This document shows, one piece after another, positions 2,597-45,802 of a stretch of 45,802 nucleotides of DNA. Numbering within the stretch: position 1 is the first letter of the stretch; each line of letters opens with the position of its first letter. The stretch comes from a virus (lineage: Duplodnaviria; Caudoviricetes), in the IMG/VR virus record IMGVR_UViG_3300023270_000003, positions 1-45,802 of that record; one strand, written 5' to 3'. The notes below the pieces were generated by a model. That model was not told the DNA's origin. It worked only from the letters and a program-made list of their open reading frames with translations, and ran no database searches. A program made the translations under genes and the position numbers.

Positions 2597-4906
2597 ATGG
2601 CTCTTGACCTCAATGACCCCAGCCAGCTTGCGGCTCTTGTGGGGGCAGCTAATTCAGGGCAGCAACTTGCGGCTCCTGATTATGCGGCCCTTCTTGGCTA
2701 TGCCCAGCCGACACCACAAGCCCAGCCACAGGAATTTAGCACGCCGGTGTTGCCTGACCCCAACAGCCAGGGTTCGGCAGTGGCCTCACCAGTAACGCTT
2801 CCCTCACAAGCTCCTGCTGGTCCAGCTAACGAACCTGCGACGACTGACTTGCCTGCTCCTAGTGTCGCGCCGCAAGCTCCTGACCCTAACTTGTCGGCTC
2901 CTGCACCTGGTCTCAGTCCTGGCCAAGCAGTCGGGGGTGGTTACTCGGTCTCTGGTTTCAACCCCAACGCCTTCAACGCCATCCAGGCAGGGCCGGCTAA
3001 GGGGGTCCGAGGTCAGATTGCGGGCGAGAAGGCTCAAGCTAACGCCGAGTTTGCTCCAATCCTTGCAGATTCGCATGCAGCCACGCAGGCGGCAATTGAT
3101 GCCACCACCAAGCAGGGCGAGATTGAGGCACAAAGGATTGCTGCTTTGGGCGAGGGCAAGGCTCAAATTGCTCAAGCTCAGCAGGGCTTTATCGACAAGG
3201 AGAGTGCCGCTATCGCCGAATCCCAGGCGGCTGCTAAGGGGGCACAGGCTGACTATCGGGCCGCGCTTGCTGATTGGGCTGGTAGCAAGGTGAACCCGGC
3301 GCAGCTTTGGGATGCAGGCGGCAAGGTGGGGCAGTTTGCCATGGTGGCTACGGCCTTCGGCCATGACTTTCTCGGCGCCCGGGGCATCAAGACTAGCGGC
3401 ATGGATAGCATCAACAAAGCTATCCAGAACAACATTAATGCACAGCTGGCTAATATCGAGAAAAAGGGCCAGGTTGCTGCAGGGTTCAAGAACCTGTGGG
3501 ACATGCAGCGCCAGCAGTCAGCCAGTGATTCTGAGGCCAGGGAGCGGATGCGCGGCTTCTATCTCGAGGGCATAAAGAATCAGATTGATGCTAATCTCTC
3601 TGGGTACGACTCAGAGTTGGCGCGCGCTAAGGCTCAGGCCGCTAAGGCAGAGCTTGTCAAGGAGCAGGTCAAAAACGACTTGCTGGTAAAGCAGCACATC
3701 GACAAGGCTTTCAATGACCGGGCACAGCAGCGCATCGAGCTTTACAAGGCCGACCTGAGCGCTTCCTCGGCTCGCTACTCTGCAGATGCGCATCTCAAAG
3801 CGGCGCAAATTGCCGCAGGGGCCAAGGATAAGTCGCACCCGCTTGATGGCGTGATTTTTGACACCAGCACGTCTGGTAAGAATCTTGCCGATAGGCGCTT
3901 CTTGCCAGGCACTCCGCCTGCTACCCAAGCTACTTTGAGAGAGCAGAACGCCAAGGTTTTGAATACGTCAGAGAAAATTCAAGAGCTTATCCAGCTTCAA
4001 GAGGCTGCAGGGCGAGTTCCCCCGACAGACTTCGGGCCAGCAAAGAAGCTTCAGGGCGAAGCCAAGCGGGCCGCAGAGCAGGTTAGAACGCTTGTCCGAA
4101 CTAGCCTTCTTTATGACTCCACCGGTAAAGCCATCAATGAGAAGGAGATGGAAATCTTCGACGAGATTGTCGGCAAGAAAGACTGGTGGCTTAATGGAGA
4201 TAACACCCGTGCCCTTTCTATCTTGGCCAAGAGCAATCTTGACAAACAGAAGGCTATCATGAGCGGTGTGTCGACTAAGATTGGGCCAGGTGACCCGGTG
4301 TTCGGCTACTCTTCGGGGCCGAATACTACGGCACCAGGTGAGTCGACCCTGTTTGATATTCAAAGTCAGCCGGGGTCAGGTAAGCCGGGCGAGAGTGAGG
4401 TTGACAAGTACCAGAAGTGGGCAGCGTCTCCTAATGCTCTGGAAGCCTACGATATCAAAAAGGTACCGAAAGAGGGGCCAGGCAATCAAGCTACCGTTTC
4501 TCGTGACTGGTCTACTTTCCTAGAAGAAAACCCTAACTTCAACTTGAAAGACACCAAGATTCAGGCCAAGCGCACAGGAGATACTTCCATTCTTGGCGGG
4601 TTTGACTCCGCGCACGAAACGGCTAGGTCCGAGAAGAATCCTGACCGCGCCTTCATTCAGCTTGAGCGACTTGCTGACCTTGCGCTGTCTGGCGACAAGT
4701 CCGCAGAGAACGTGATTCATGCGCTGGCAGATGGCGAGTTGCTGCGCCCTGAAGGCGAGGGCGACCAGAAAAAGGTAAAGTTCAAGAAGTCGGGGTCGGA
4801 ATCTCAGTCAGACCAGGACGCAATTTTGAGCATGTACGCGAAGTGGGAAGAAGCGCGACTGGCTGGCAAAAAGGTGCCTGGGCAAGAGAACGCTACTGAG
4901 GAATAA
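2597..4906 (+). CDS. Putative internal virion/ejection protein
   Basis: 769 aa, Pro-rich N-terminus then Ala/Gln/Lys coiled coil; podovirus synteny. Confidence 0.55.
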   Translation: MALDLNDPSQLAALVGAANSGQQLAAPDYAALLGYAQPTPQAQPQEFSTPVLPDPNSQGSAVASPVTLPSQAPAGPANEPATTDLPAPSVAPQAPDPNLSAPAPGLSPGQAVGGGYSVSGFNPNAFNAIQAGPAKGVRGQIAGEKAQANAEFAPILADSHAATQAAIDATTKQGEIEAQRIAALGEGKAQIAQAQQGFIDKESAAIAESQAAAKGAQADYRAALADWAGSKVNPAQLWDAGGKVGQFAMVATAFGHDFLGARGIKTSGMDSINKAIQNNINAQLANIEKKGQVAAGFKNLWDMQRQQSASDSEARERMRGFYLEGIKNQIDANLSGYDSELARAKAQAAKAELVKEQVKNDLLVKQHIDKAFNDRAQQRIELYKADLSASSARYSADAHLKAAQIAAGAKDKSHPLDGVIFDTSTSGKNLADRRFLPGTPPATQATLREQNAKVLNTSEKIQELIQLQEAAGRVPPTDFGPAKKLQGEAKRAAEQVRTLVRTSLLYDSTGKAINEKEMEIFDEIVGKKDWWLNGDNTRALSILAKSNLDKQKAIMSGVSTKIGPGDPVFGYSSGPNTTAPGESTLFDIQSQPGSGKPGESEVDKYQKWAASPNALEAYDIKKVPKEGPGNQATVSRDWSTFLEENPNFNLKDTKIQAKRTGDTSILGGFDSAHETARSEKNPDRAFIQLERLADLALSGDKSAENVIHALADGELLRPEGEGDQKKVKFKKSGSESQSDQDAILSMYAKWEEARLAGKKVPGQENATEE

Positions 4907-10686: not shown

Positions 10687-11216
10687 TGGCCTGGGGCCGA
10701 GGTAATCCGCTCCTAGGCTACTGGCTTAGGATGACGATGAACCCCACAAAGGCGGAGGCGGCTCTTGAACCTGCCATCGCTGCCCTGGAGGAGCCGTACC
10801 GATTCCAGTACCCTTTCATGGACATCAAGTACTTCGCCGACTTCGCGCTACTTGACTCCAAGATTATCGTAGAGGTGGATGGGGCCTCTCACGATAGGCC
10901 GGACCAAATGGAAAAGGACCTGCTCCATGAGATACAGGTCCTGAAAAAGGGGTGGCGTGTAACTCGCACCACCAACGAGCAGGCACTTAGAAGCCCGGAA
11001 GTCGCAGTTGCGCAGGCTCTGGCTGAGAAGCACTTGTCTCTTGATACAGAGACTCGAGTTGAGCAACTGACGGCCCTTCTGTCCCGGCTTCACTCAGATT
11101 ACCCGCATCTGCTTGTTGCTGCCGCCAAGAAAGCCAAGCACCGTGCACAGCGGGCGAAAGTCGGTGCTGATACTCGGGGCCGCGCGCGTAATCGATCAAC
11201 TTCTCCCCAGGCTTAG
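10686..11216 (+). CDS. DUF559/Vsr-like endonuclease
   Basis: FQYP..YFADF...IIVEVDG.SH...GWRV.R.TN motif. Confidence 0.8.
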   Translation: MAWGRGNPLLGYWLRMTMNPTKAEAALEPAIAALEEPYRFQYPFMDIKYFADFALLDSKIIVEVDGASHDRPDQMEKDLLHEIQVLKKGWRVTRTTNEQALRSPEVAVAQALAEKHLSLDTETRVEQLTALLSRLHSDYPHLLVAAAKKAKHRAQRAKVGADTRGRARNRSTSPQA

Positions 11217-14057: not shown

Positions 14058-14440
14058 TATTCCCCCACGAAGCTAAGGTCAGGCGGGCTGTAATTCGGCC
14101 CCTTCATAATCTTGCCGTCCGCCCTCTTGTGCCCCGGCTCCTTGGTCATGTTGCTGCGGTGAATCTCGGCAAACACTCGGTCAATGTCGATGCACCAGAT
14201 ATCAGCGGCGCCTAGGACCACGTACAGGATATCTCCTAAAGCATCTGCAACTGCCTGACGATTAGCCGGGCGGTCTTGGCCACCTACTGCGCCTACAAGC
14301 TCTTTGTACTCCTCCAAAATTAGCCGAAGACGCAAATCAATAGAGGCTTGGTCTTCTATCTCAAGGTCATGCTCTATGCCCATTTTGTTGTGAAATTCGC
14401 ATACCATATCAAACATGTCCGACATAGGAATATAAGTCAC
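14057..14440 (-). CDS. MazG-like NTP pyrophosphohydrolase (DR2231/dUTPase-like)
   Basis: LILEEYKEL, DALGDILYV, IHRSNMTK, DGKIMKG...PPDL. Confidence 0.88.
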   Translation of the reverse strand: MTYIPMSDMFDMVCEFHNKMGIEHDLEIEDQASIDLRLRLILEEYKELVGAVGGQDRPANRQAVADALGDILYVVLGAADIWCIDIDRVFAEIHRSNMTKEPGHKRADGKIMKGPNYSPPDLSFVGE

Positions 14441-15903
14441 TTACAAGCTTCCCAATTCTTGCCGATACCGCCGGCAGTTCTCAAATTCTTTAACGGAAAC
14501 GCAGCGCACATAATTTCGTCAGCGAGCGCAGCGACCCTCTCAGCATTACCTTCAGGACAGCGCCACCCTAGCTCATCGTGCACCTGTTTCTCAAGCACCG
14601 CGCCCAGTTTCTGCATCTCAGGAGAATTCAGTGCATCAGCCATGGCGCACCCGATTACATGAGCCCCAGTTCCTTGCATTGGCAGATTCTGTGCCCCTCG
14701 ACATGCTGAGGCGAATGCCCAGTCCGTGTCGTCTTTTCTGCCGTTGCCTCTGGCGATGAGTTGGGAGTAGTCAACGTATCTCCCGTCAAGCGCGCAAATG
14801 CCTCCGTCTCGTCGAAGAAGGCTAGCGACGAGAGACTGCCATTTAGGTACGCTTGGCACTGCTTCATAAAGTGCGCCAACAATTTCTTCTGCTCGCTGTT
14901 TTCCAACTGGTTCTCCTTGCTGGTCTCTGAGGGAGGTCGCAAAACCGTGGACAGTCCCGCCGTACTGCAACTTGTACCAGACGGCTTTGATTGCGTCTCG
15001 GTACCAGGCGAGTTCGGGGTCTGACTTAAACTCCGAAAGCTCTGACACGTCTCGTATAGGCCGACCACTAGCAGTGCGCCAATTGAGAAAAGTCCCAAAT
15101 ACACGATGAGCGTTGTAAGCATGGATATCCTGGCCTGGGGCCGTCAACTCCAGAAGTAGCGTGTCGTTAAAAAGCCACTCACACATGTTGGCCATGATTA
15201 CAACTTCTAGGGCCGTGTAATCCTTGACCACCAGCAGCATGCCGGGCGGAGCAATGAAGCCCTTGCGGATGCCGTACAGGTCTTTGCGCTTGTCACGAGG
15301 GATTTGCTGCCCCTCGGGATTTTTCATTCCAAAACGGCCAGTAATCGCCCCGACACGGTCATCCTCGTCTCCGGCTGGCCCGCAGACCGGATGCACAAAT
15401 CCATCAGGTCCGACATACTTAGGGAGTTTGGCAAGATATTTAAGCCCAGCGCTAATTCGCCGCAGCCCCATAACGCCTTCAACAATTCGTCTTTCCGGGC
15501 TGTTACTACGAGTACGGCCGAGAACCCACTCGAGGGCTGTGCGGTCGAGCTTGACTTCTCCGTCATCTATCTTAACCCTTCCCTTGAACCAGTATGGACT
15601 CTTGGGCAGGCGAAGCTGGCCGTGTAGTAACTCAGCCATCTGCTTAGGAGAGGTCCAGATGTCGTCTGGCCGTGCATTAACCACGCCCAACTCTTGCAAC
15701 GTAGCCCGCAACTCAGCAAGGCACTTGGCCTGGTCCTGTTCAGCCACACTGGCCTGCGCATTGAAATACGGTACATCAATGGCGAAACCAGCTGCTTCCA
15801 TCGCAATAGCGGCTTCTTCAATCTGTTGAATCCTCGCCGAGGCGTACAGGGCTTGCACTGGGATTTTTGTTGCTAAAATCGGCGATGACGAGTCCGGCAT
15901 CAA
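14437..15903 (-). CDS. polA: Family A DNA polymerase, polymerase domain (split gene)
   Basis: ME.AGF.ID, TGRF...NP..QQIP, motif A DYTALE, motif B R...K...Y...YG, motif C VHDEL. Confidence 0.93.
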   Translation of the reverse strand: MMPDSSSPILATKIPVQALYASARIQQIEEAAIAMEAAGFAIDVPYFNAQASVAEQDQAKCLAELRATLQELGVVNARPDDIWTSPKQMAELLHGQLRLPKSPYWFKGRVKIDDGEVKLDRTALEWVLGRTRSNSPERRIVEGVMGLRRISAGLKYLAKLPKYVGPDGFVHPVCGPAGDEDDRVGAITGRFGMKNPEGQQIPRDKRKDLYGIRKGFIAPPGMLLVVKDYTALEVVIMANMCEWLFNDTLLLELTAPGQDIHAYNAHRVFGTFLNWRTASGRPIRDVSELSEFKSDPELAWYRDAIKAVWYKLQYGGTVHGFATSLRDQQGEPVGKQRAEEIVGALYEAVPSVPKWQSLVASLLRRDGGICALDGRYVDYSQLIARGNGRKDDTDWAFASACRGAQNLPMQGTGAHVIGCAMADALNSPEMQKLGAVLEKQVHDELGWRCPEGNAERVAALADEIMCAAFPLKNLRTAGGIGKNWEACK

Positions 15904-16105
15904 ACCCCTTTTCCCAGCTCAGCTTGCTCATGGAGAGGATGCAGGCGACTACATCGAAGTTGTGGCCTAGACACCAAAAGCCAAAATCGCATTCCACAAA
16001 CCCAGAAGCAATTTCGGCCGTGTCTTGATTAAAGCTGCTAGTCAAACTTCGTTGCACTGTCAAGTGCCAGCTTAGCCACTCTAAACCTACAGTGAAATCT
16101 GCCAT
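15818..16105 (-). CDS. Hypothetical protein between the polymerase halves
   Basis: 95 aa, GGAGAGG RBS, overlaps both neighbours. Confidence 0.5.
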   Translation of the reverse strand: MADFTVGLEWLSWHLTVQRSLTSSFNQDTAEIASGFVECDFGFWCLGHNFDVVACILSMSKLSWEKGFDAGLVIADFSNKNPSASPVRLGEDSTD

Positions 16106-16866
16106 GGGTACGGCCTCTCCTGCTTCTCTCGCATCATTAACTCATAAATCCACAAGGCTAGGACCGCATCCCACGCCGCATAAGCCAAATAGCGAGCCCA
16201 CAAAGGATGGGAGGGGTTAAGGTCAGTAAGAGGAATGTGACGTCGGACACGGGCCTTCCATTCTGCCAGCACTTCCTCTGGCTCCTTAACATCGTGCGGC
16301 GGCTTCTTTTTCATACAACTTATGACACCGCAAGCACAGCGCTTTTTCCAGACTAGGTGCTCTCGGATTTCGACAGCGTCGTAACCAAGGAGTCCGTCGA
16401 AGCTTTCAGTTTTTCCAGCGCCGCAGTAATCGACGCCAAGTGAGTCAAGATCAAAGCCTTCACGTTTGGCTCGATGGGGCCACCAGAATCTGGCCATCGC
16501 CAAAGTGTTTTGCGCACCCTTGAGATGCACACCGTGGTTTCGGATAGTGTGGTGATCCACTGCCTGATTGTGGACGGCTTTTGTGAATCTTGCATCTTCT
16601 AACCAACTCTTGACACTTGGGCTCGCGAGCAGGGAACCTGCGACCACCCAAGATTGACTCTCGTGAAATCCTCTTGGTAGGAGCGGCCCGGAAGGAACGG
16701 CCACCGAAAAAACGTGACAAGTCGTGCGGCCAACCGGCGACTCCGTTCGGATATCGCAGCCGTAAAACTCTGTATCCAACCCTGCAATGCCATACTTGGT
16801 AACCTCTCTTATCATCTCCTGGGCTTCTGACTCTGTACACACATACTGTATGTGCTCAGTCATCAT
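16087..16866 (-). CDS. 3'-5' exonuclease domain of PolA (separate gene)
   Basis: ExoI LDTE, ExoII HNQAVD, ExoIII YAAWD. Confidence 0.9.
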   Translation of the reverse strand: MMTEHIQYVCTESEAQEMIREVTKYGIAGLDTEFYGCDIRTESPVGRTTCHVFSVAVPSGPLLPRGFHESQSWVVAGSLLASPSVKSWLEDARFTKAVHNQAVDHHTIRNHGVHLKGAQNTLAMARFWWPHRAKREGFDLDSLGVDYCGAGKTESFDGLLGYDAVEIREHLVWKKRCACGVISCMKKKPPHDVKEPEEVLAEWKARVRRHIPLTDLNPSHPLWARYLAYAAWDAVLALWIYELMMREKQERPYPWQISL

Positions 16867-23771: not shown

Positions 23772-24218
23772 TCATAAAATTATTGCGTAAAATGGCTTGG
23801 CATAGTCGCTCCGCCACCTCTCAGCCAGTTTCTGCGCGCGGTAGTGCAAGACAAGCTCTTGGTCGTCACTGTCCGCAACATGGAACACAGGGTCCGCCTC
23901 GCCCAGGATGCCGAAACTAACGACCCAATGCTCCCCATTATCCACCAACAGAATGCCCACAGAGCCAGCTCGGTGCGCCGCCAGTAGTCTGAGTAGGGCT
24001 ACGTCATCTCGTCGCTCTGAGAGCACGCCAGGTATCAAACCAGGGCTGTCTTTGGCCACTAGAAGCGCCGCCCGCATCAAGCCTCGGGGTGTGGTGCCCT
24101 GATTGCTGCACCCGGAGAGGCGGATTAACTCGTCCTCACTGCGGGTGATGCCCCTGGCTAGTAGCGCCGTTCGCAGGCTTGCAGGGCCGCAGCTAGCTTG
24201 CGTTGATTGGAAACGCAT
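23772..24218 (-). CDS. Stand-alone C39-like cysteine peptidase
   Basis: Q....SCGPASL, GTT, HWVV, VADS (Cys-His-Asp triad). Confidence 0.85.
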   Translation of the reverse strand: MRFQSTQASCGPASLRTALLARGITRSEDELIRLSGCSNQGTTPRGLMRAALLVAKDSPGLIPGVLSERRDDVALLRLLAAHRAGSVGILLVDNGEHWVVSFGILGEADPVFHVADSDDQELVLHYRAQKLAERWRSDYAKPFYAIIL

Positions 24219-24352
24219 ATCTCCTTTAGTTCTTCTAGCACAAGCTTATAAGCTTGACGCATGCCCAAGCTGTAGTCGGTTTCTCCATTGCCTTCCTCCC
24301 AATTTATCTCGCGCTTGCACATATCTATCAGACCTTGTAAGTCTTCAATCAT
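24158..24352 (-). CDS. Hypothetical protein (paralog pair, copy 2)
   Basis: AAGGAG RBS; G...AY..VL..LKEI. Confidence 0.55.
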   Translation of the reverse strand: MIEDLQGLIDMCKREINWEEGNGETDYSLGMRQAYKLVLEELKEICVSNQRKLAAALQACERRY

Positions 24353-24500
24353 GTATCTCCTTCTCGCGTATCTCCTTTAATCGATAAAGAACCCAATTGT
24401 AAGCCTCAATCGCTCCACTAGTGTCCTCATATCTGTATTTGCACAACTCGCTAACTTCCCTCTGTATGTCTTTCATCAAGACTTCAATACCTTCGTCCAT
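24345..24500 (-). CDS. Hypothetical protein (51 aa, paralog pair, copy 1)
   Basis: TAAGGAG RBS; MDEGIEVL...GAIEAYNWVLYRLKEI. Confidence 0.6.
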   Translation of the reverse strand: MDEGIEVLMKDIQREVSELCKYRYEDTSGAIEAYNWVLYRLKEIREKEIHD

Positions 24501-24519
24501 TAGACTCCTTATCAGATTT

Positions 24520-24740
24520 TAGGCATACGGAGGCCAGTCTCTCCCTTCCTCAGGGCTCTTGGCTTCATGGCCTGCCCCTTGGTCTGGTCCTAGCCTGCTC
24601 TAGGATGCATCCATGCAAGTCATGGAAACTGTCAAATGCTCTGTTCAGGGTCCGACCGGTTGTGACCGTGGGAGTTTAAAGACCCTTCTATTGAGCTTTC
24701 TCGCCCAGTGCACCTTCCTGGCCCCTCCGTAGTGGCCTAG
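24520..24740 (-). ncRNA. Candidate ~220-nt structured RNA / leader
   Basis: Ends pair (UAGGC..UACGGAGG..CCAG with CUGG-CCUCCGUA-U-GCCUA) around at least 5 hairpins; no ORF in the track. Confidence 0.6.
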
Positions 24741-24742
24741 GT

Positions 24743-24771
24743 CCTTAACCAGCAAACTGGCAAGGTGTCAA
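24743..24771 (-). promoter_or_regulatory. Putative sigma70-type promoter
   Basis: Perfect TTGACA at 24771-24766; weak -10 (TTAAGG/TAAGGA); start would fall near 5' end of the structured RNA. Confidence 0.4.
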
Positions 24772-24777
24772 TGGGTT

Positions 24778-24870
24778 AGCTGTCTTTCCAGCTGTCTGCA
24801 GTTCCCTCTATGGCGAGGCCAGGGTCCCTTTGGGCCTGGGTGGGAGTCGCGCTCCTGACGAACAGCAGAA
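24778..24870 (-). promoter_or_regulatory. Structured RNA element ending in GACAG-CUGGAAAGACAG hairpin
   Basis: Closing helix plus three hairpins; motif shared with 33939-33993. Confidence 0.45.
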
Positions 24871-24872
24871 GG

Positions 24873-25070
24873 TTACCACAACGAGAACGGAGCGTCAATA
24901 GCCTTGCCGGCCGAGTATCCCTCCGTGTAGCCATCATGATAGCCCTGTGCCCACGCCCAGTGCATGGCCCCGGCTATCGCACAGTTGCGAAAAAAGATGC
25001 GCATCGAGGCACGGAGGGAGCCAGGGTCGCGGAAGTCATTCCATCGCTTTGTAAAAGCTTCTGGGGGCAT
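24873..25070 (-). CDS. Hypothetical protein
   Basis: GYHDGYTEGYSAG repeat; RBS present. Confidence 0.55.
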   Translation of the reverse strand: MPPEAFTKRWNDFRDPGSLRASMRIFFRNCAIAGAMHWAWAQGYHDGYTEGYSAGKAIDAPFSLW

Positions 25071-25079
25071 GTCCTGGCC

Positions 25080-25382
25080 TCACTGCTTCTCGGCTTGCTG
25101 CTCACAAATCCACGCACGATGCTCGCTTGGGCTGCACCAATACTTCGTACCTCGCCAGTCGCAAGATTGACCATTCTCCTGATTGCCCTCGTAACGCTTC
25201 AGGGGCACCTCCGTACACTTGCCTTCCTTCATGGGCGACGGCTTGTAACGGCCCTTCTCGTAAGAATTGCACTTGATGCCACCGTGCACAATCATCGAAA
25301 GAGCTATCAGGAAAAGAAACACGTACCACACGCACTGAGTAGCTACGCTGACCCATTCTGGCATATCAGCTTTAACTCTCAT
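25080..25382 (-). CDS. Hypothetical membrane protein, Cys-rich
   Basis: TM segment then several Cys. Confidence 0.55.
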   Translation of the reverse strand: MRVKADMPEWVSVATQCVWYVFLFLIALSMIVHGGIKCNSYEKGRYKPSPMKEGKCTEVPLKRYEGNQENGQSCDWRGTKYWCSPSEHRAWICEQQAEKQ

Positions 25383-26000: not shown

Positions 26001-26237
26001 TCACAGGTCCATCTCCAGGAAGGCTTGGTGCTGCGCAAGAGCTACTTTAGCGTATGACATCGGGATTGGGGAACCTGGGCAGTGTTGATACCCGAGGACG
26101 CCGAATGCTACATGTGTCACCGGCTGTGGCGAAGCTATGAATGCTACATGTGTCACCGGCTGTGGTGAGGCTATGAGCGGGCTTGCGGGTACCTCCCTGC
26201 TGCAGAATTGGCACTCGACCATATTAGTCACGGGCAC
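26001..26237 (-). CDS. Hypothetical protein containing a 12-aa duplication
   Basis: CxxC...HxxxC; IASPQPVTHVAF x2. Confidence 0.5.
   Translation of the reverse strand: MPVTNMVECQFCSREVPASPLIASPQPVTHVAFIASPQPVTHVAFGVLGYQHCPGSPIPMSYAKVALAQHQAFLEMDL
26103..26176. repeat. 36-bp tandem duplication
   Basis: Units start 26103 and 26139, 2 mismatches. Confidence 0.9.
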
Positions 26238-27514: not shown

Positions 27515-28876
27515 TTAGGCGGCAAGAGCCGGGCCAACGCCGAGAATCGCAAGTGCATCTCTATTTGAGAGGTTTAAGAAAACTCTACGTGAGCCTTCTT
27601 CTGGAGGTGGGGGCATGTTCAGGTCAATGTAAGAGGGTTCGTGCAAAGGCACGCCATCAAGCAACTCATCATCCACCACATATTGCTCAACATCTGGCAC
27701 GACGCTAAGAGTTGGAACCTCCAAAGCTGCATATGGAAGACTTGGAGCTAGTGAATCGCAGTCAGTGTTGAGCCAATCATGGAAAATCTGCAGGAGATAG
27801 ACCACAGCCTCCACTGCCAGCGCAGACTCACGAAACATCGGTAAAAGCCGGCACTCGACGGTCTTGTGCTCTCCCCATGCCAAGAAATTCAGCTGCATGT
27901 ACCTGTCTTCGTGATTGAAAGGGGAGAATTCGGTTCCCAAGTCATCACGCAAGTAATTGGCCGGTCGCTCCACGTTCTGATGGCAATAGTCGTTCTCTCC
28001 AGCCAACCTTCGTCGGAGACTGTGCCACACAGGAAGGCCCTTAGCGTCCGCCCAAGCCAGCCACTTGGCACGGAAGTACTCGAAGAAAGCCTGGCTATAA
28101 AGCTGCGAGATGTGGGTGTCGCTCAGGAACGACACATGCACATGCATGCCGCAAGAGTAGTCGGTGGAGTCTGGGTAAAACTTCACTAACTGGCGCAGGG
28201 CCTCGATAACCGTGCCTGGCTTGGTCTGCACCTCGCGGGCTCCGCAGTAAGGCTCCGACGTCCAGTGGCCACGGATACTGCCATCGCCGCAAGATGTGGC
28301 ACCCGCAGCCCGCACTTCGCGAATTAGAGCGTCCGTGTCAGAAAACCGCCCCTCAATCTCGATGCCAACCTTATCGTAGACCCTGTTTATTTCGCAGGTC
28401 CTACTATTATGACCTGGAAACCCACACAACTTGCAGCCGTAGGCGGTGTATGGGGATTGAGTGGTGCGAGTACAGAGGACCCCGTTCTCTGTGTGAGCGA
28501 TGTTCACCATGTAGCTTTCTTTGGGGAATTCCCCATTAAGCACAACGCAGCTTCGTGCGGCGGTAGGGTGCGCGGCGCGTAGTTCTGCAGGGCTATCGTA
28601 ACTTTGCAGAGAAATTACGTTTCCGTTGCTATCACAGGGAAAGTATTTTCCTGCAATGGTATAGCCAGGAGGCAGCGAAATCCTATCAAAATTGAACCTA
28701 GCTCTGGTCGAACTAAATAGACCGCGGTTCCTGCAGAATGCATCCACTTCCTCCAAAGTAGCAGAATCGGGGCAGTACAGGGCAAGCTCCCCCTCACTGC
28801 TGAAGTATTCGTTGGGCTCAATATGTGAGTTATTCCCGCCCATGAAGTTGTGTTGCGAAACAAGAAATATCTTCAT
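27515..28876 (-). CDS. Amidoligase (COOH-NH2 ligase type 2) with CCHC zinc knuckle
   Basis: GIEIE, DGSI, EV, CGMHVHV, RY..LN, TVECR; CKLCGFPGHNSRTC. Confidence 0.88.
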   Translation of the reverse strand: MKIFLVSQHNFMGGNNSHIEPNEYFSSEGELALYCPDSATLEEVDAFCRNRGLFSSTRARFNFDRISLPPGYTIAGKYFPCDSNGNVISLQSYDSPAELRAAHPTAARSCVVLNGEFPKESYMVNIAHTENGVLCTRTTQSPYTAYGCKLCGFPGHNSRTCEINRVYDKVGIEIEGRFSDTDALIREVRAAGATSCGDGSIRGHWTSEPYCGAREVQTKPGTVIEALRQLVKFYPDSTDYSCGMHVHVSFLSDTHISQLYSQAFFEYFRAKWLAWADAKGLPVWHSLRRRLAGENDYCHQNVERPANYLRDDLGTEFSPFNHEDRYMQLNFLAWGEHKTVECRLLPMFRESALAVEAVVYLLQIFHDWLNTDCDSLAPSLPYAALEVPTLSVVPDVEQYVVDDELLDGVPLHEPSYIDLNMPPPPEEGSRRVFLNLSNRDALAILGVGPALAA

Positions 28877-29917: not shown

Positions 29918-30392
29918 CTTGCCCCTCCTGACCCCCCTGACCCTCCTGACCCTCTTGTTGCTCCTTGGGCACAAAAATGAACCGGCTATTGTCCATGCTC
30001 ATAAAGCTATCGCCCATGTTGCGCTCATGCTCGTCAAGCGCCGCCAGGTCAAGAGCCAGAAACGGGGCAAGGGTGAAGCCATCATAATTGGCCGCGGTTT
30101 GCAGGTGACCGTAGCAAATCAAGTCAAAGCGGTTCATAGGCCAGAAGTCTTTGACACTAATCCAGTCATGAGGCACCCGGGCCAACGCGTCATAAATCTC
30201 CCCCTCGTAGTTGAGAATGTCGCATCGGTCCATGTCACCAGGCCCGAAGTTGGGCGTTGACACAGGCCACCCCATCTCGGTAACCCGCATCGTTTTGAGG
30301 GTGCCATCGGGCTGCACCGCCTTGTGCACACGGACAGGGGTTACTTTATCCCCAACTCGCTCGTATCGAACGAAGGCAGAAGAATACGGCAT
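29907..30392 (-). CDS. Hypothetical protein with QEG-repeat tail
   Basis: GAGGAG RBS before 30392; ends EQQEGQEGQGGQEGQDAG. Confidence 0.6.
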   Translation of the reverse strand: MPYSSAFVRYERVGDKVTPVRVHKAVQPDGTLKTMRVTEMGWPVSTPNFGPGDMDRCDILNYEGEIYDALARVPHDWISVKDFWPMNRFDLICYGHLQTAANYDGFTLAPFLALDLAALDEHERNMGDSFMSMDNSRFIFVPKEQQEGQEGQGGQEGQDAG

Positions 30393-30393
30393 G

Positions 30394-30750
30394 TTACTTG
30401 CTCCTCTTGGTCTTAGGAATCTTCGGGAAAATTGGGGTAAGAACATACCCCATACGCGGCCAGCCCTCACGAATCATCTGTGCCGCTTTTGCCCATGAAT
30501 AGGCTTGCTCGTAGTCGTAGCCGGCCGAGAAGAACATTGAGTCGGCCAAATGGGCGGCAGTCTCTGAGTCATCCGTGTGTAGGATGTAGTCTCCAAGCGG
30601 ATGAGTTTTGCCAAAAAGATGCAACCCAACCCCCCAGGCGTCTTCTGCCCAGCCGTCGGTATCACCGTGCAGCGCCACAGTACAAGCCATCACATCACAG
30701 ATACGTGCAGCCATTTGCCGCACTTTCTTACTATAGACAGCTCTCGCCAT
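30394..30750 (-). CDS. Hypothetical early protein
   Basis: Start MARAVYSK follows upstream stop. Confidence 0.55.
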   Translation of the reverse strand: MARAVYSKKVRQMAARICDVMACTVALHGDTDGWAEDAWGVGLHLFGKTHPLGDYILHTDDSETAAHLADSMFFSAGYDYEQAYSWAKAAQMIREGWPRMGYVLTPIFPKIPKTKRSK

Positions 30751-30751
30751 G

Positions 30752-30976
30752 TTACTTGACCCCCCGAACAGTAAGCTCGGTGTCAATCTCCTGTCGGAGG
30801 GCCAGCAAGGCTGAGTTGGACATCGGATGCTCGCCACCTCTGATAGATTTGATTGCGAATCCCGTTCCGTCTACAACGTAGAATTCTCCATCAGGAAGCT
30901 CCGGGCATCCTACGAAATCTTCGTACGGAATGCCCAAATTCTTACTTTCGCACAACAGCATCAAAAACCTACGCAT
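30752..30976 (-). CDS. Hypothetical early protein
   Basis: GAGG RBS. Confidence 0.5.
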   Translation of the reverse strand: MRRFLMLLCESKNLGIPYEDFVGCPELPDGEFYVVDGTGFAIKSIRGGEHPMSNSALLALRQEIDTELTVRGVK

Positions 30977-32227: not shown

Positions 32228-32265
32228 GAGATTCAACCTAGCAGCTCTGGAGGTTGGGGTCAAGC

Positions 32266-32442: not shown

Positions 32443-32482
32443 GTTGGGCTCCAGGAAGCCTCTTGCGAGGCGGTTGCAGCGT

Positions 32483-32533
32483 GGTCTCGTCAGTGCTGGC
32501 GTCACCAGCAGACCCCAAGGTGGGGTTTCGACC
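32483..32533 (-). ncRNA. Type II hammerhead ribozyme
   Basis: GGUC-GAAA-CCCC accuu GGGG-UC^-UGCUGG ugacg CCAGCA-CUGACGA-GACC; complete core and three paired stems; cut between 32511 and 32510. Confidence 0.92.
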
Positions 32534-32822: not shown

Positions 32823-32854
32823 GGTGTCTGTCCTCGCCTCCTGACTGGGAGTAG

Positions 32855-32870
32855 TGCACAGTCGAGGCCA
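32855..32870 (-). promoter_or_regulatory. Candidate sigma54 promoter of first early gene
   Basis: TGGCCTCGACTGTGCA (GG-N10-GC), suitably placed upstream of RBS. Confidence 0.35.
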
Positions 32871-33116
32871 GATTTGGGTCACCAGGATTCGGGCGCTTGC
32901 GAGGCTGGCGAGGCTGCACTGGCGTTCAGTAGTGTGCGCGTGGGCACGGTGACTGTACGCAAGCCCACAATTCGAGCTGCAAGTGCATGAGATTGTTCAG
33001 GGTCTGCCGCACTGCGTTGAAGTGTGCGCTGGGGCTCGGTGGGCGCTGGCGCACAGTGGGGTGTTGAGTTACAGTGAGGCTGGATGACCCTCGCTCAGTC
33101 GCCGCTGGGCTATTCT

Positions 33117-33285
33117 TGCAAGAATTGAGCCAGGAGATGTGGCACGAACTGTGCTTGATTAGCCTCAGCTCTATGCAAATCTCATGCCAACAATTTCCTT
33201 GCAAAATTCATGCCACTAACATCTCCTTGCAAGAATTGTGCCAAGAAGGGTGTGTTCCCTTTGGGAAGTTGGCACGGGACTTGCC
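33117..33285. repeat. Array of six sigma54-type -24/-12 boxes (TGGC-N9-GC)
   Basis: Minus: 33117-32, 33174-89, 33200-15, 33228-43; plus: 33140-55, 33270-85. Confidence 0.75.
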
Positions 33286-33896
33286 TTACCTATCCCACAC
33301 TGGAATAAATTTTTGAAATCTTCCTACGCACTGCGTCAATATTAGCCTATCCACTTCGATTTGGCACATTAGAGAAGTGGAATCAGCACTTAGCGAGATT
33401 TATCGAGCATACTGACCTAATAGCGAGCGAAGCGAGCCTATACCCCCATTAGCGAACGAATGTGAGCATACAGACAGCCTGTGCGGCTGGGAAGGCAGAG
33501 GGCAGAAGCTTTTTAGAAATGTATAAGACTTACTCTGCGAATGAAACTTTTCGAAGAAAAATTCATGAGCGCGAGAGCCGAACACTAATCTTGTCTAGCC
33601 TCAATCTCATTCGGCGATCGCAATCTGCGTTGAAGGTAGTCTAGAGAGCGAAGCTTAGAAATCGTATGCGCGATGTCGATTTCCTGTCAAAAAGTTGCAT
33701 TAATAAGATTGCGTGTGGTACACTAAGAACGTAGAACAGAGACGGAGGGCAGAAGCGCTTCAACTTCGTTTCAGCGTGCAAATGTCTATCGCATTTGCTC
33801 ACAGTAAGTGAGGAATGAATGCAGAGAGGCAGAGCGGAGTTCTTGTTCCGGGGAGGACTTGTACCTACATCTCCTGAATTAAATTCTGTATTCTGC

Positions 33897-33924
33897 TTGA
33901 CACTTTGTGCTAAGTGGCTATACT
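33897..33924 (+). promoter_or_regulatory. sigma70-type late promoter
   Basis: TTGACA-N16-TATACT upstream of packaging operon. Confidence 0.7.
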
Positions 33925-34052: not shown

Positions 34053-34445
34053 ATGAAAGTGGCTGAGGCAGGATTCGCCGAAAGGCTCCTAATGGCTGGT
34101 AAGAACGAAGTCTTCGTTAAGCTTAAGGACGAGCTTGACAAGACGATTAAGCTAGTAGTCCATGCCCGTGAGTCGCTTGATAACGAGCTTGACTCCGAAT
34201 GGGCACAGAAGAAGCTCTCAGTGGACAAGGCATTCCTTGCCAAGCTGAAGGAGCTAACATCTTCTTTCAATAGCCTCACAGAGAGTAAGATTCGTCTCGA
34301 CAAGGCTGAGAAGGCTATCGAGGCTGAGTTGACTCCTGCTGAGGAGCGAGATGCCGTAAAGCGGTACCTAATGGATATGGTGCCGAGCGACATGGTGCAG
34401 CTTGTCAAGGAGGCGCGTGAGGCGAGGGGAGTGGTAGAGCATTAA
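34053..34445 (+). CDS. Putative terminase small subunit
   Basis: Helical protein, first late gene upstream of TerL; alternative start 34092. Confidence 0.5.
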   Translation: MKVAEAGFAERLLMAGKNEVFVKLKDELDKTIKLVVHARESLDNELDSEWAQKKLSVDKAFLAKLKELTSSFNSLTESKIRLDKAEKAIEAELTPAEERDAVKRYLMDMVPSDMVQLVKEAREARGVVEH

Positions 34446-44121: not shown

Positions 44122-45802
44122 ATGTCTCTAGTTAAAGACACAGTAGCGATTTCCTTCTCCTCTGGTATTCAGCCTAGCCAGAGAGAGCGGCTGCTTCCTC
44201 CAGAGAAGCTTCTTGTTGCTCAAAACTGCTCGTTTATTCGAGATGAGGGGCCGCAGAAGCGCAACGGGCACGTTAGCAGAGTGATTAGGACTTCTGCTGA
44301 CTATGTCGGGATGGGAGGTATTCCGAGCCCAACGGCCATGCCAGGCAGGCAAATTTACTCCACGGCGAATCCTAACATCTCGCCTAACTGGCTTCTGGGG
44401 TGGGGAATTCGCGGCACAGAACTAGCCACCTCTACGAGCCCGTTCGAAGTTTCCCCACAAGCTAATGCTGGGCAGGTTCTTGGGCAAGCTTCAAGAGACG
44501 ACGAAATCATTTCTTGGGACGGCTTTCGAGCTTTTGTATACGCGCCACTGCAAACCGCAAAGTTTGGTGAGCCTCAAAATAGTGTGTCACCTGGGGCCTC
44601 TATACGTGGTCCGTGGGTGATGCCAACCATGCGTGTGGAACCTGTCGCAAAGATTTCAGATTCCCAGCTTTTTCCGGATGCAGCAGACAACGGTGTCCTG
44701 AGGGTCGTGGCTTGGATTAACTCTGACCTCACCAGCATTGGCTATTCGGTTTACGACAGCTCTAACGGCGCGTGTCTGGTCTTTAATCAGCGGTTTACCG
44801 GCGGGTCCGCCAAGTCAGTGAGGTGTATCACTGTTGGGACGTGGTTTCACATCCTGGTGTCAGACTCCAACTCTAATACCCTCACCATGCGGAGTTTTCA
44901 GCAGGATTCGCCCACCAGCGTCACCACGAGGTCACTAGGGCCTGTTGATAACCAGTTTGACTGCAAGAAAATCGACGAGCATGGGTTTGTCGTTATTCGC
45001 TCCAAAGCCTCTGTGATTACGGCCATTGTCCTGAATCAAGATGGGAGCACTAACCTAACATTCACTCCAAACCTTTTTGGTAACCCGGCCAACACGAACA
45101 ATGCCATTGCGTGCGCAGTCGATTTTGACAAGAACATCGGCATTGCTTGGCAATCTGGGGCAGGACCCGTAACCACCTTTTTTGCCGTGTATTCACCTGG
45201 TGGCGCCCCTATTAACGTCTCCAGTCCTGCAACGGTTACCACCAGCACAGCAAGACGGCTTACTTTGGCTCCTAGGGCTGTTGGGACAAATATCTCTGGC
45301 GTGCTTTGGGATGTTTTTATTGAGGATTTGGTCTCAGGACAGGTCCAGACTCGGTGTGTTACCGTGCAAGCTGCTGCTACTTCAGGCACAGCCACCGCCA
45401 CACGGCATCGAGTGACCATTGCTAGCCACGCGTTTCAGGTCGGTAACAGGACATTCCTGTGGTGCTCCTCCCCTAATCCAGGCACCGTTTCTGGCCTCCA
45501 AACGTCTTGGTATCTTTGTGATGCTAGCCTGCAGCCAGTGGGCAAAATGTCTTACGGGACCGCGAATGCTGATTTTGGTACTACTCTGAATACGTTGCCT
45601 AGCGTCAATTGGCATACGGATGACGACATGCATCCGGGCAAGGACCGAATCGTTTTCCATGGGGCGCTTGGATACAAGCAAAGGGTGCAATCTACTGCGC
45701 TCTCCCCTCGCCCGTCGGGTGTGTTTACTGAGCCTAGTGTCAACTTCTATAAGCTGGACTTTATCCCTAAGCTCAGGGCCGGGCAAGCGGGGCGGACTAC
45801 CT
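44122..45802 (+). CDS. Tail nozzle / DNA stabilization protein, 5' part (continues at position 1)
   Basis: MSLVKDTVAISFSSGIQ...AQN....KRNGH; runs into the terminal overlap in frame with 16-1809; absent from track because the contig ends. Confidence 0.7.
   Translation, partial: MSLVKDTVAISFSSGIQPSQRERLLPPEKLLVAQNCSFIRDEGPQKRNGHVSRVIRTSADYVGMGGIPSPTAMPGRQIYSTANPNISPNWLLGWGIRGTELATSTSPFEVSPQANAGQVLGQASRDDEIISWDGFRAFVYAPLQTAKFGEPQNSVSPGASIRGPWVMPTMRVEPVAKISDSQLFPDAADNGVLRVVAWINSDLTSIGYSVYDSSNGACLVFNQRFTGGSAKSVRCITVGTWFHILVSDSNSNTLTMRSFQQDSPTSVTTRSLGPVDNQFDCKKIDEHGFVVIRSKASVITAIVLNQDGSTNLTFTPNLFGNPANTNNAIACAVDFDKNIGIAWQSGAGPVTTFFAVYSPGGAPINVSSPATVTTSTARRLTLAPRAVGTNISGVLWDVFIEDLVSGQVQTRCVTVQAAATSGTATATRHRVTIASHAFQVGNRTFLWCSSPNPGTVSGLQTSWYLCDASLQPVGKMSYGTANADFGTTLNTLPSVNWHTDDDMHPGKDRIVFHGALGYKQRVQSTALSPRPSGVFTEPSVNFYKLDFIPKLRAGQAGRTT
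45670..45802. repeat. Terminal direct repeat copy 2 (circular assembly overlap)
   Basis: Matches 1-133; circular genome length about 45669 bp. Confidence 0.97.

Follow-up and report, generated by a model that had tools for sequence, protein, structure and literature searches.

What, if anything, does a 372-nt stretch without genes do at the head of the recombination and replication genes of a phage? The window, by which we mean the whole stretch of DNA that was analyzed, is the 45,802-nt record of an uncultured soil phage whose genes for terminase, portal, and capsid are all encoded on the plus strand. The minus strand, read from ~33,600 down to 11,700, carries early genes followed by genes for ERF, an exonuclease, SSB, a DnaB-like helicase, a DNA polymerase, and thymidylate synthase. 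The gap occupies 24501–24872 and is bounded upstream by a 65-aa ORF (24873–25070, minus strand) and downstream by a 51-aa ORF, whose ribosome-binding site AAGGAG and ATG lie at 24500–24510 (minus strand) and which heads the block leading to a C39-like protein, ERF, the exonuclease, SSB, and the helicase. At 372 nt, the gap is long for so dense a block of ERF, exonuclease, SSB, and helicase genes. Stop codons occur in all three of its sense frames, and the short frames between them have no visible ribosome-binding site. On the plus strand, a 294-aa ORF starting at 24810 overlaps the minus-strand genes and has no family match, and we regard it as a shadow frame.

The record carries the labels linear and 90% complete despite a 133-nt terminal direct repeat that is 99% identical (1–133 and 45670–45802); because the repeat is present at both ends, the record is probably complete. 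Near-identical DNA occurs in sequencing runs from soil, litter, and rhizosphere, none of them recorded as RNA. The phage family is large, with 78 ERF and 227 capsid homologues, many on contigs of 45–51 kb; none of 50,697 phage records matches it. A host search using SSB was not discriminating; the leader-peptide-like short ORFs and the lipoprotein-like ORF of loci L005 (2167–2346) and L006 (2562–3130) are of a kind that we take to be typical of myxobacteria, which is a weak hint at the host. Elsewhere in the window, DNA polymerase A is split into two ORFs (14437–16866, minus strand), an exonuclease part of 259 aa and a polymerase part of 488 aa, and a 78-aa ORF contains a 36-nt tandem duplication (26103–26174).

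Predicted structure and class of the element

Within the gap, the minus strand at 24520–24741 is predicted to form a multi-branched, closed RNA domain, and its 3′ end falls 10 nt before the AAGGAG. The initial annotation, made from the letters alone, had drawn this 222-nt element with a five-way junction, a ~17-bp interrupted helix joining its ends and stopping just before the ribosome-binding site of the recombination and replication genes, and a set of inner helices. We find all of the named helices in the sequence, and the end-to-end helix has 17 bp, is predicted to be stable, and stops where it was said to; two of the helices, however, both use G 24706. The closing helix (5+6+6 bp) pairs 24739–24718 with 24537–24520 and is interrupted by a 2-nt bulge and a 3×1 loop, with 12 bp broken only by the 2-nt bulge. 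Its 5′ arm (24718–24739) contains an SD-like GGAGG and its 3′ arm (24520–24537) a CCUCC.

Enclosed by this helix, a branched domain at 24636–24713 is predicted to consist of GUGC/GCAU (24713/24636), a GGGC/GCUC hairpin (24706/24693), AGGGUC/GACCCU (24686/24647), and a CGGU/ACCG hairpin, and it competes with an alternative fold of about equal energy. Two short hairpins follow at 24588–24629, UCCAUG/CAUGGA (24626/24610) and UCCUAG/CUAGGA (24605/24588), with pair probabilities of 0.98 and 0.97, and then a 3′ hairpin with purine-rich internal loops (24548–24582), built from GGGGC/GCCCU (24578/24552) and GGC/GCC (24572/24561). A pseudoknot had also been proposed between CUCCC (24670–24674) and GGGAG (24541–24545). 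The two are indeed complementary, but the free minimum pairs them as an ordinary helix and drops AGGGUC/GACCCU; as a nested helix, CUCCC/GGGAG has a mean pair probability of 0.40. In these models CUCCC/GGGAG may take the place of AGGGUC/GACCCU or may cross it in a pseudoknot. When the closing helix is imposed, a fold with the inner helices as first drawn reaches −86.6 kcal/mol vs. a minimum of −87.0 kcal/mol over 24485–24745 (pseudoknot not counted), and a hand-built version of that fold reaches −68.2 vs. −75.2 on 24526–24731. The element is also poor in U (15.8% vs. 21.9% for the early strand), and 14 of 434 overlapping segments, some of them the element itself, are as low.

How far does this fold exceed chance? 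Against shuffled sequences, z is −2.08 (6 of 200 shuffles as good) and, in a repeat, −2.16 (8 of 300), so that the shuffle comparison put forward in the initial annotation does favor folding, though modestly (z about −2.2). The opposite strand scores −2.3, and folding therefore does not fix the strand. Among 205 sense-strand tiles of the genome, the element's tile ranks 13th, and 23 tiles reach z ≤ −2. Better-folding tiles at 30737–30958, 30071–30292, and 28517–28738 (minus strand) and at 34067–34288 (plus strand), with z from −3.6 to −4.75 (20 shuffles each), lie largely inside ORFs and form long hairpins that could be processing sites. The end-to-end duplex of the element is worth −25.6 kcal/mol, a value equaled from 25 of 3796 genome start positions sampled on a coarse grid, which undercounts them. 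The two 6-bp parts of the closing helix have pairing probabilities of 0.93–0.95 and 0.71–0.76 in 9 of 10 contexts, and when folding begins at the predicted transcript start at 37 °C these drop to 0.57 and 0.46.

That the element belongs to no recognized RNA class, as the initial annotation had held, agrees with the covariance-model search it had recommended: with Rfam 15 there is no match at gathering level anywhere in the window and none at E ≤ 10 in 24300–25000. ARAGORN found no tRNA or tmRNA genes. For RNase P RNA, two consensus words are absent and there is no Rfam match; SRP words and group I were rejected as well, and for the raiA/ornate class we have one candidate relative, to which no significant likeness was found. 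A CsrA/RsmA sponge was rejected on the count of GGA (12 vs. 10.7 ± 2.2 in shuffles), and a retron or other RT-linked RNA, a bridge RNA, or an omega RNA was rejected because no partner reverse transcriptase, recombinase, or nuclease family was found in PHROGs (67 ORFs) or Pfam (26 window ORFs). Our literature searches returned no description of the element, and six of its 14–15-letter words have no match in the searched part of the supplements to a catalogue of viral structured RNAs (PMC10690425).

Transcription of the gap

The element had been credited with its own promoter on the strength of TTGACA at 24771–24766 (minus strand). This hexamer has no −10 element that passes a promoter scan, and TTGACA occurs 39 times in the window, one of them inside the element, vs. 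22.5 expected. We conclude that it is a poor promoter and that the assignment is probably wrong, although, depending on the host, it may still serve as a weak one. A better candidate is found by a weighted scan at 24898–24870 (minus strand), 130 nt upstream of the element, where a sigma70-type TTGACG, a 17-nt spacer, and a TG-extended TAACCT overlap the stop codon of the upstream ORF. This site is joint third of 14,658 scored placements, a rank that rests on weights which we set ourselves, and a stricter promoter scan does not list it. A second site of the same TTGACG-17-TG-TAACCT form is present at 32263.

Host RNA polymerase would transcribe from 24898–24870, starting near 24863, which would give a leader of ~340 nt. 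The first part of this region (24795–24869, minus strand) is predicted to fold into a 75-nt four-way junction that is the size of a tRNA and has no tRNA motifs. It is followed by two hairpins at about 24793–24779 and 24765–24744 (minus strand), and together these predicted folds probably form the 5′ half of the element's leader. A scan found no terminator-like site on the minus strand between 23000 and 27000. Because the better promoter lies further up and no terminator follows, the element more probably makes up the 3′ half of an untranslated leader of ~340 nt than a gene of its own, and on the same grounds the discrete ncRNA with its own promoter that was originally proposed is the less likely reading.

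Several other RNA and promoter features lie in the early region. At the early/late switch, near-consensus sigma70 promoters stand back to back (33661–33690, minus strand; 33897–33924, plus strand). Using the sigma54 −24/−12 consensus given in PMC12316311, we found a cluster of sigma54-type boxes at 33117–33243, with four on the minus strand and a looser one on the plus strand; four such boxes in 161 nt compare with none in 300 shuffles. A relative with a capsid 64% identical (L020) has four sigma54-type boxes in 130 nt in the matching place (40–117). Between the boxes of the window and the first early ORF is a 286-nt stretch that is C-rich and U-poor (15.4%; 32830–33115, minus strand). A type II hammerhead with GAAA, GUC, CUGACGA, and three stems lies between two early ORFs (32480–32533, minus strand); it scores 23.5 bits (E 0.16), which is below the Rfam gathering score of 37, and it is the only core-scan match in the window and 19 loci.

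The same slot in strains and relatives

Searches for homologues of the element returned little. BLASTN gave 10 phage records with 20–31-nt matches at E 1–4 and no match among plasmids. Viral contigs probed with ERF, helicase, C39, and capsid yielded five family loci, none of which covers the slot, and a C39 pattern gave two matches there (L017 is not a family member); genome contigs gave no ERF or capsid match. A covariance model built from the window only (R1) reached at best a partial 12.2 bits across 16 loci and found nothing on the L006 element; a hairpin model (R2) run over 12 loci had no match on that element either, and a reciprocal model (R3) did not match the window element. Motif scans from both hairpins matched 0, 82, and 9 loci, none of the 91 had an outer stem or a full model match, and these loci look chance-like. 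In two distant relatives (ERF 38% identical), tRNA genes lie 1.2–1.6 kb upstream of ERF, which may be a loose positional parallel.

Strain contigs have low depth and cover the element only in part. In one strain run (X3), 24524–24732 is unchanged, as is 24920–25300, and the gene for the C39-like protein carries 7 changes in one contig. Contigs of X2 and X3 have 20 extra letters at 24518–24523, and these change the closing helix at its outer end. In X6, one letter is missing at 24754, and of its three listed changes in the 5′ half, two fall in predicted loops. Outside the element, 151 nt flanked by 11-nt repeats (24217–24369) are missing from two strain runs, and most of a 64-aa ORF is lost with them.

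Metagenome searches gave 13 loci, among them the window's own record, and L006 is the only other one that spans the slot; the 760 nt before the gene for the C39-like protein in L008 contain ORFs, and the record then ends. L006 is syntenic with the window: ERF is 59% identical, the C39-like protein 67%, and an amidotransferase-like protein 40%, and among the small ORFs the 61-aa ORF is 56% identical over 39 residues and the upstream ORF 43% over 28 (12 of 28 residues, E 6e-6 pairwise). The homologue of the upstream ORF bounds a gap of 398 nt in the matching slot. When 2376 placements were scored over the two strands, a promoter-like site at 3428 came out best on the sense strand, and ~140 nt past it is a 183-nt domain closed by an 8-bp helix, with z −3.74 (1 of 200 shuffles). 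This domain has an 8-bp complement between a loop and its 3′ part. Its last hairpin resembles the last hairpin of the window element by eye, a likeness that is not significant, and its 3′ arm has no anti-SD. A further 120-nt fold lies upstream in L006 (3080–3199, z −3.8), and an ORF with a C-terminal HTH and, by eye, an HNH-like start is found between the folded gap and the gene for the C39-like protein (4095–4550). The single Rfam match in L006 3050–3850 is at E 3.4.

The two elements show no detectable resemblance in their letters. Local alignment gives p of 0.44–0.97 for the cores and 0.07–0.99 for the whole gaps, 31 of 100 shuffles and 14 of 100 segments of phage DNA score as well in a structure-profile alignment, and a covariance model built on either sequence alone does not find the other element. 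Such models are weak, and the two elements may still be homologous. The view that the element is an uncatalogued, non-coding, folded RNA draws support from the lack of genes in the gap, a closing helix predicted to be stable, the absence of Rfam matches, and the folded element in the slot of a relative.

Candidate roles and known systems

The gap is real, its predicted fold is plausible and not in the catalogues, and one relative has a counterpart in the matching position; we favor, tentatively and with less than even confidence, a role in cis. The element would be the 3′ half of a ~340-nt leader of the recombination and replication genes, and its 17-bp helix would serve as a processing and protecting stem. 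A host RNase III-type double-strand ribonuclease would cut the closing helix, the cut would free a folded piece of ~190–200 nt, and the short structured 5′ end left before the first gene would stabilize the long downstream message. Selection would then keep the RNA paired and U-poor without keeping particular letters, so that relatives would hold a fold in the slot without sequence likeness; that the slot fold is kept without shared letters suggests selection on pairing and not on a precise three-dimensional core. RNase III needs a minimum of ~11 bp, and such sites are found on most T7 transcripts (PMC3867540). The closing helix, at 17 bp in three parts, exceeds this length, and it is for this reason, together with the T7 precedent, the low U content, and the slot fold, that we rank the cis-acting leader first. 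The hammerhead core on the early strand makes it appear that this phage uses RNA-level processing. The modest folding signal (rank 13 of 205) and the weakening of the helix from the predicted start at 37 °C count against the leader, and the branched interior and possible pseudoknot exceed the needs of a processing stem. Among the functions first suggested (a decoy, a cis-regulator, or a replication primer), a cis role fits best, a decoy may apply, and the primer is without support. Should the element prove to be a processing leader and nothing more, it adds a further case of RNA-level control of phage early genes.

The surplus of structure is what a trans-acting RNA would account for. The main alternative, serious but doubtful, is that the element is stable ncRNA cargo, cut from the early transcript like tRNAs, and as a decoy draws off a host defense protein that binds or senses RNA, in which case the slot would swap RNAs between relatives. 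The self-contained closed domain with its branched interior and possible pseudoknot agrees with this, as does L006, where a separate closed fold has a loop complementary over 8 bp to its 3′ part, similarly placed. The tRNA genes of the two distant relatives sit at about the element's distance from ERF, although by eye other genes lie between them and ERF, and the strain run in which the core is unchanged and 20 letters are added at the 3′ edge could be read the same way, except that the invariance is not specific to the core. Weighing against cargo, no fixed letters are detectable between the window and L006, though the neighboring proteins are 40–67% identical. Ornate RNA classes, by contrast, retain many fixed letters, and raiA has 51 highly conserved positions (PMC10861870). 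We consider it unlikely that the element founds a new class of pseudoknotted ~200-nt phage RNA, excised from early transcripts and occupying a slot for interchangeable stable RNAs (tRNAs in the distant relatives, another closed fold in L006), that would serve as a decoy for an RNA-binding or defense protein of the host, in a widespread uncultured family that would also use a hammerhead and sigma54-site arrays; relatives that turned out to share a conserved pseudoknotted core would make the element a new class of ornate RNA or an RNA decoy, with covariation to be sought in dozens of genomes. There is likewise only a small chance that this is an ordinary promoter-bearing gap with an incidental fold. 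That would agree with the 12 of 205 tiles that fold better and the 23 with z ≤ −2, with the at least 25 equally strong end-to-end duplexes in the genome, and with the lack of a homologue in BLAST (phages and plasmids), pattern scans, and covariance models, but it leaves a gap that is long for its block, filled by a helix that stops just before the ribosome-binding site, and a matching L006 gap with a stronger fold.

The position behind a promoter and at the head of a long operon would also suit an antiterminator that, as RNA alone or with the help of a protein, modifies the RNA polymerase of the host for the ~13-kb replication operon in the manner of HK022 put or lambda nut, and 24557–24543 matches 14 of the first 15 letters of an annotated lambda nutL site (13 of 15 to either boxB is reached by 7 of 2000 shuffles). 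We hold this to be improbable, because the boxB-like stem has a predicted probability of 0.003, boxA matches at most 6 of 9, L006 has no such hairpin, and an equally good nutR match lies at 10938; moreover, PHROGs shows no N-like protein among 67 scanned ORFs of at least 60 aa, and terminator-like sites downstream are no commoner than in shuffles (11 vs. 13.4). According to PMC9378689, putR lies ~270 nt behind its start and acts over 10 kb, and put RNAs are only ~70 nt with two stem-loops, whereas the element has 222 nt and, as first drawn, a five-way junction. A self-cleaving ribozyme of an undescribed class, cutting the early transcript before the replication genes, has very little to recommend it: the type II hammerhead core on the same strand and a CUGANGA word at 24553 speak for it, and the hammerheads of phages are found beside genes, where they may serve to process long transcripts (PMC3088659), but there is no Rfam ribozyme match at E ≤ 10 and no core conserved with L006, and the hammerhead scan matches only the site near 32500. 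Just as remote are a translational switch among the GGAGG of the 5′ arm, the CCUCC of the 3′ arm, and the true ribosome-binding site, and a replication primer. The 3′ arm could pair with the ribosome-binding site once the closing helix is lost, but the closing helix wins by ~17 kcal/mol, predicted access to the ribosome-binding site is low in both states with little change, and the 3′ arm in L006 has no anti-SD. The primer had been suggested because no primase was recognized, and a 324-aa ORF gave nothing at 0.9 or above in an atlas search for primase; phages that encode a DnaB-type helicase but lack a primase commonly rely on that of the host, which removes this support. For three unpaired stretches of the element, the strongest duplexes with other parts of the genome (−14 to −20.5 kcal/mol, a range without a control) include no strong partner.

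Among known systems, the element resembles the ornate RNAs raiA, GOLLD, ROOL, and OLE in its length of ~200 nt (as in raiA), its paired ends, its several branches, and its possible pseudoknot, and differs from them in having no Rfam match at E ≤ 10, no detectable conserved letters, and a single phage instance. With HK022 put and lambda nut it has in common one boxB-like 15-mer and the placing of a structured RNA after a promoter of host type, where a long early operon begins, yet it is three times the length of put, has no boxA and no predicted boxB stem, and has no N-like protein that we could find. Like the viral candidates in PMC10690425, it is an uncharacterized intergenic fold of an IMG/VR phage just upstream of a gene; those candidates rest on covariation, whereas the element is put forward by fold prediction. 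It has no complete hammerhead core (CUGANGA, GAAA, and UH joined by three stems), unlike the type II phage hammerheads described in PMC3088659, with which it has in common a hammerhead in the same genome and strand and, potentially, RNA-level processing of early transcripts. The element may work like a leader processed at RNase III stems, such as those in T7 early transcripts and those that flank pre-rRNA. T7 RNase III sites are local hairpins, whereas the element's stem closes a branched interior of ~180 nt and its cleavage is a prediction. As with the T7 stems (PMC3867540), the element would place a double-stranded stem longer than the ~11-bp minimum on a polycistronic phage transcript, before a gene.
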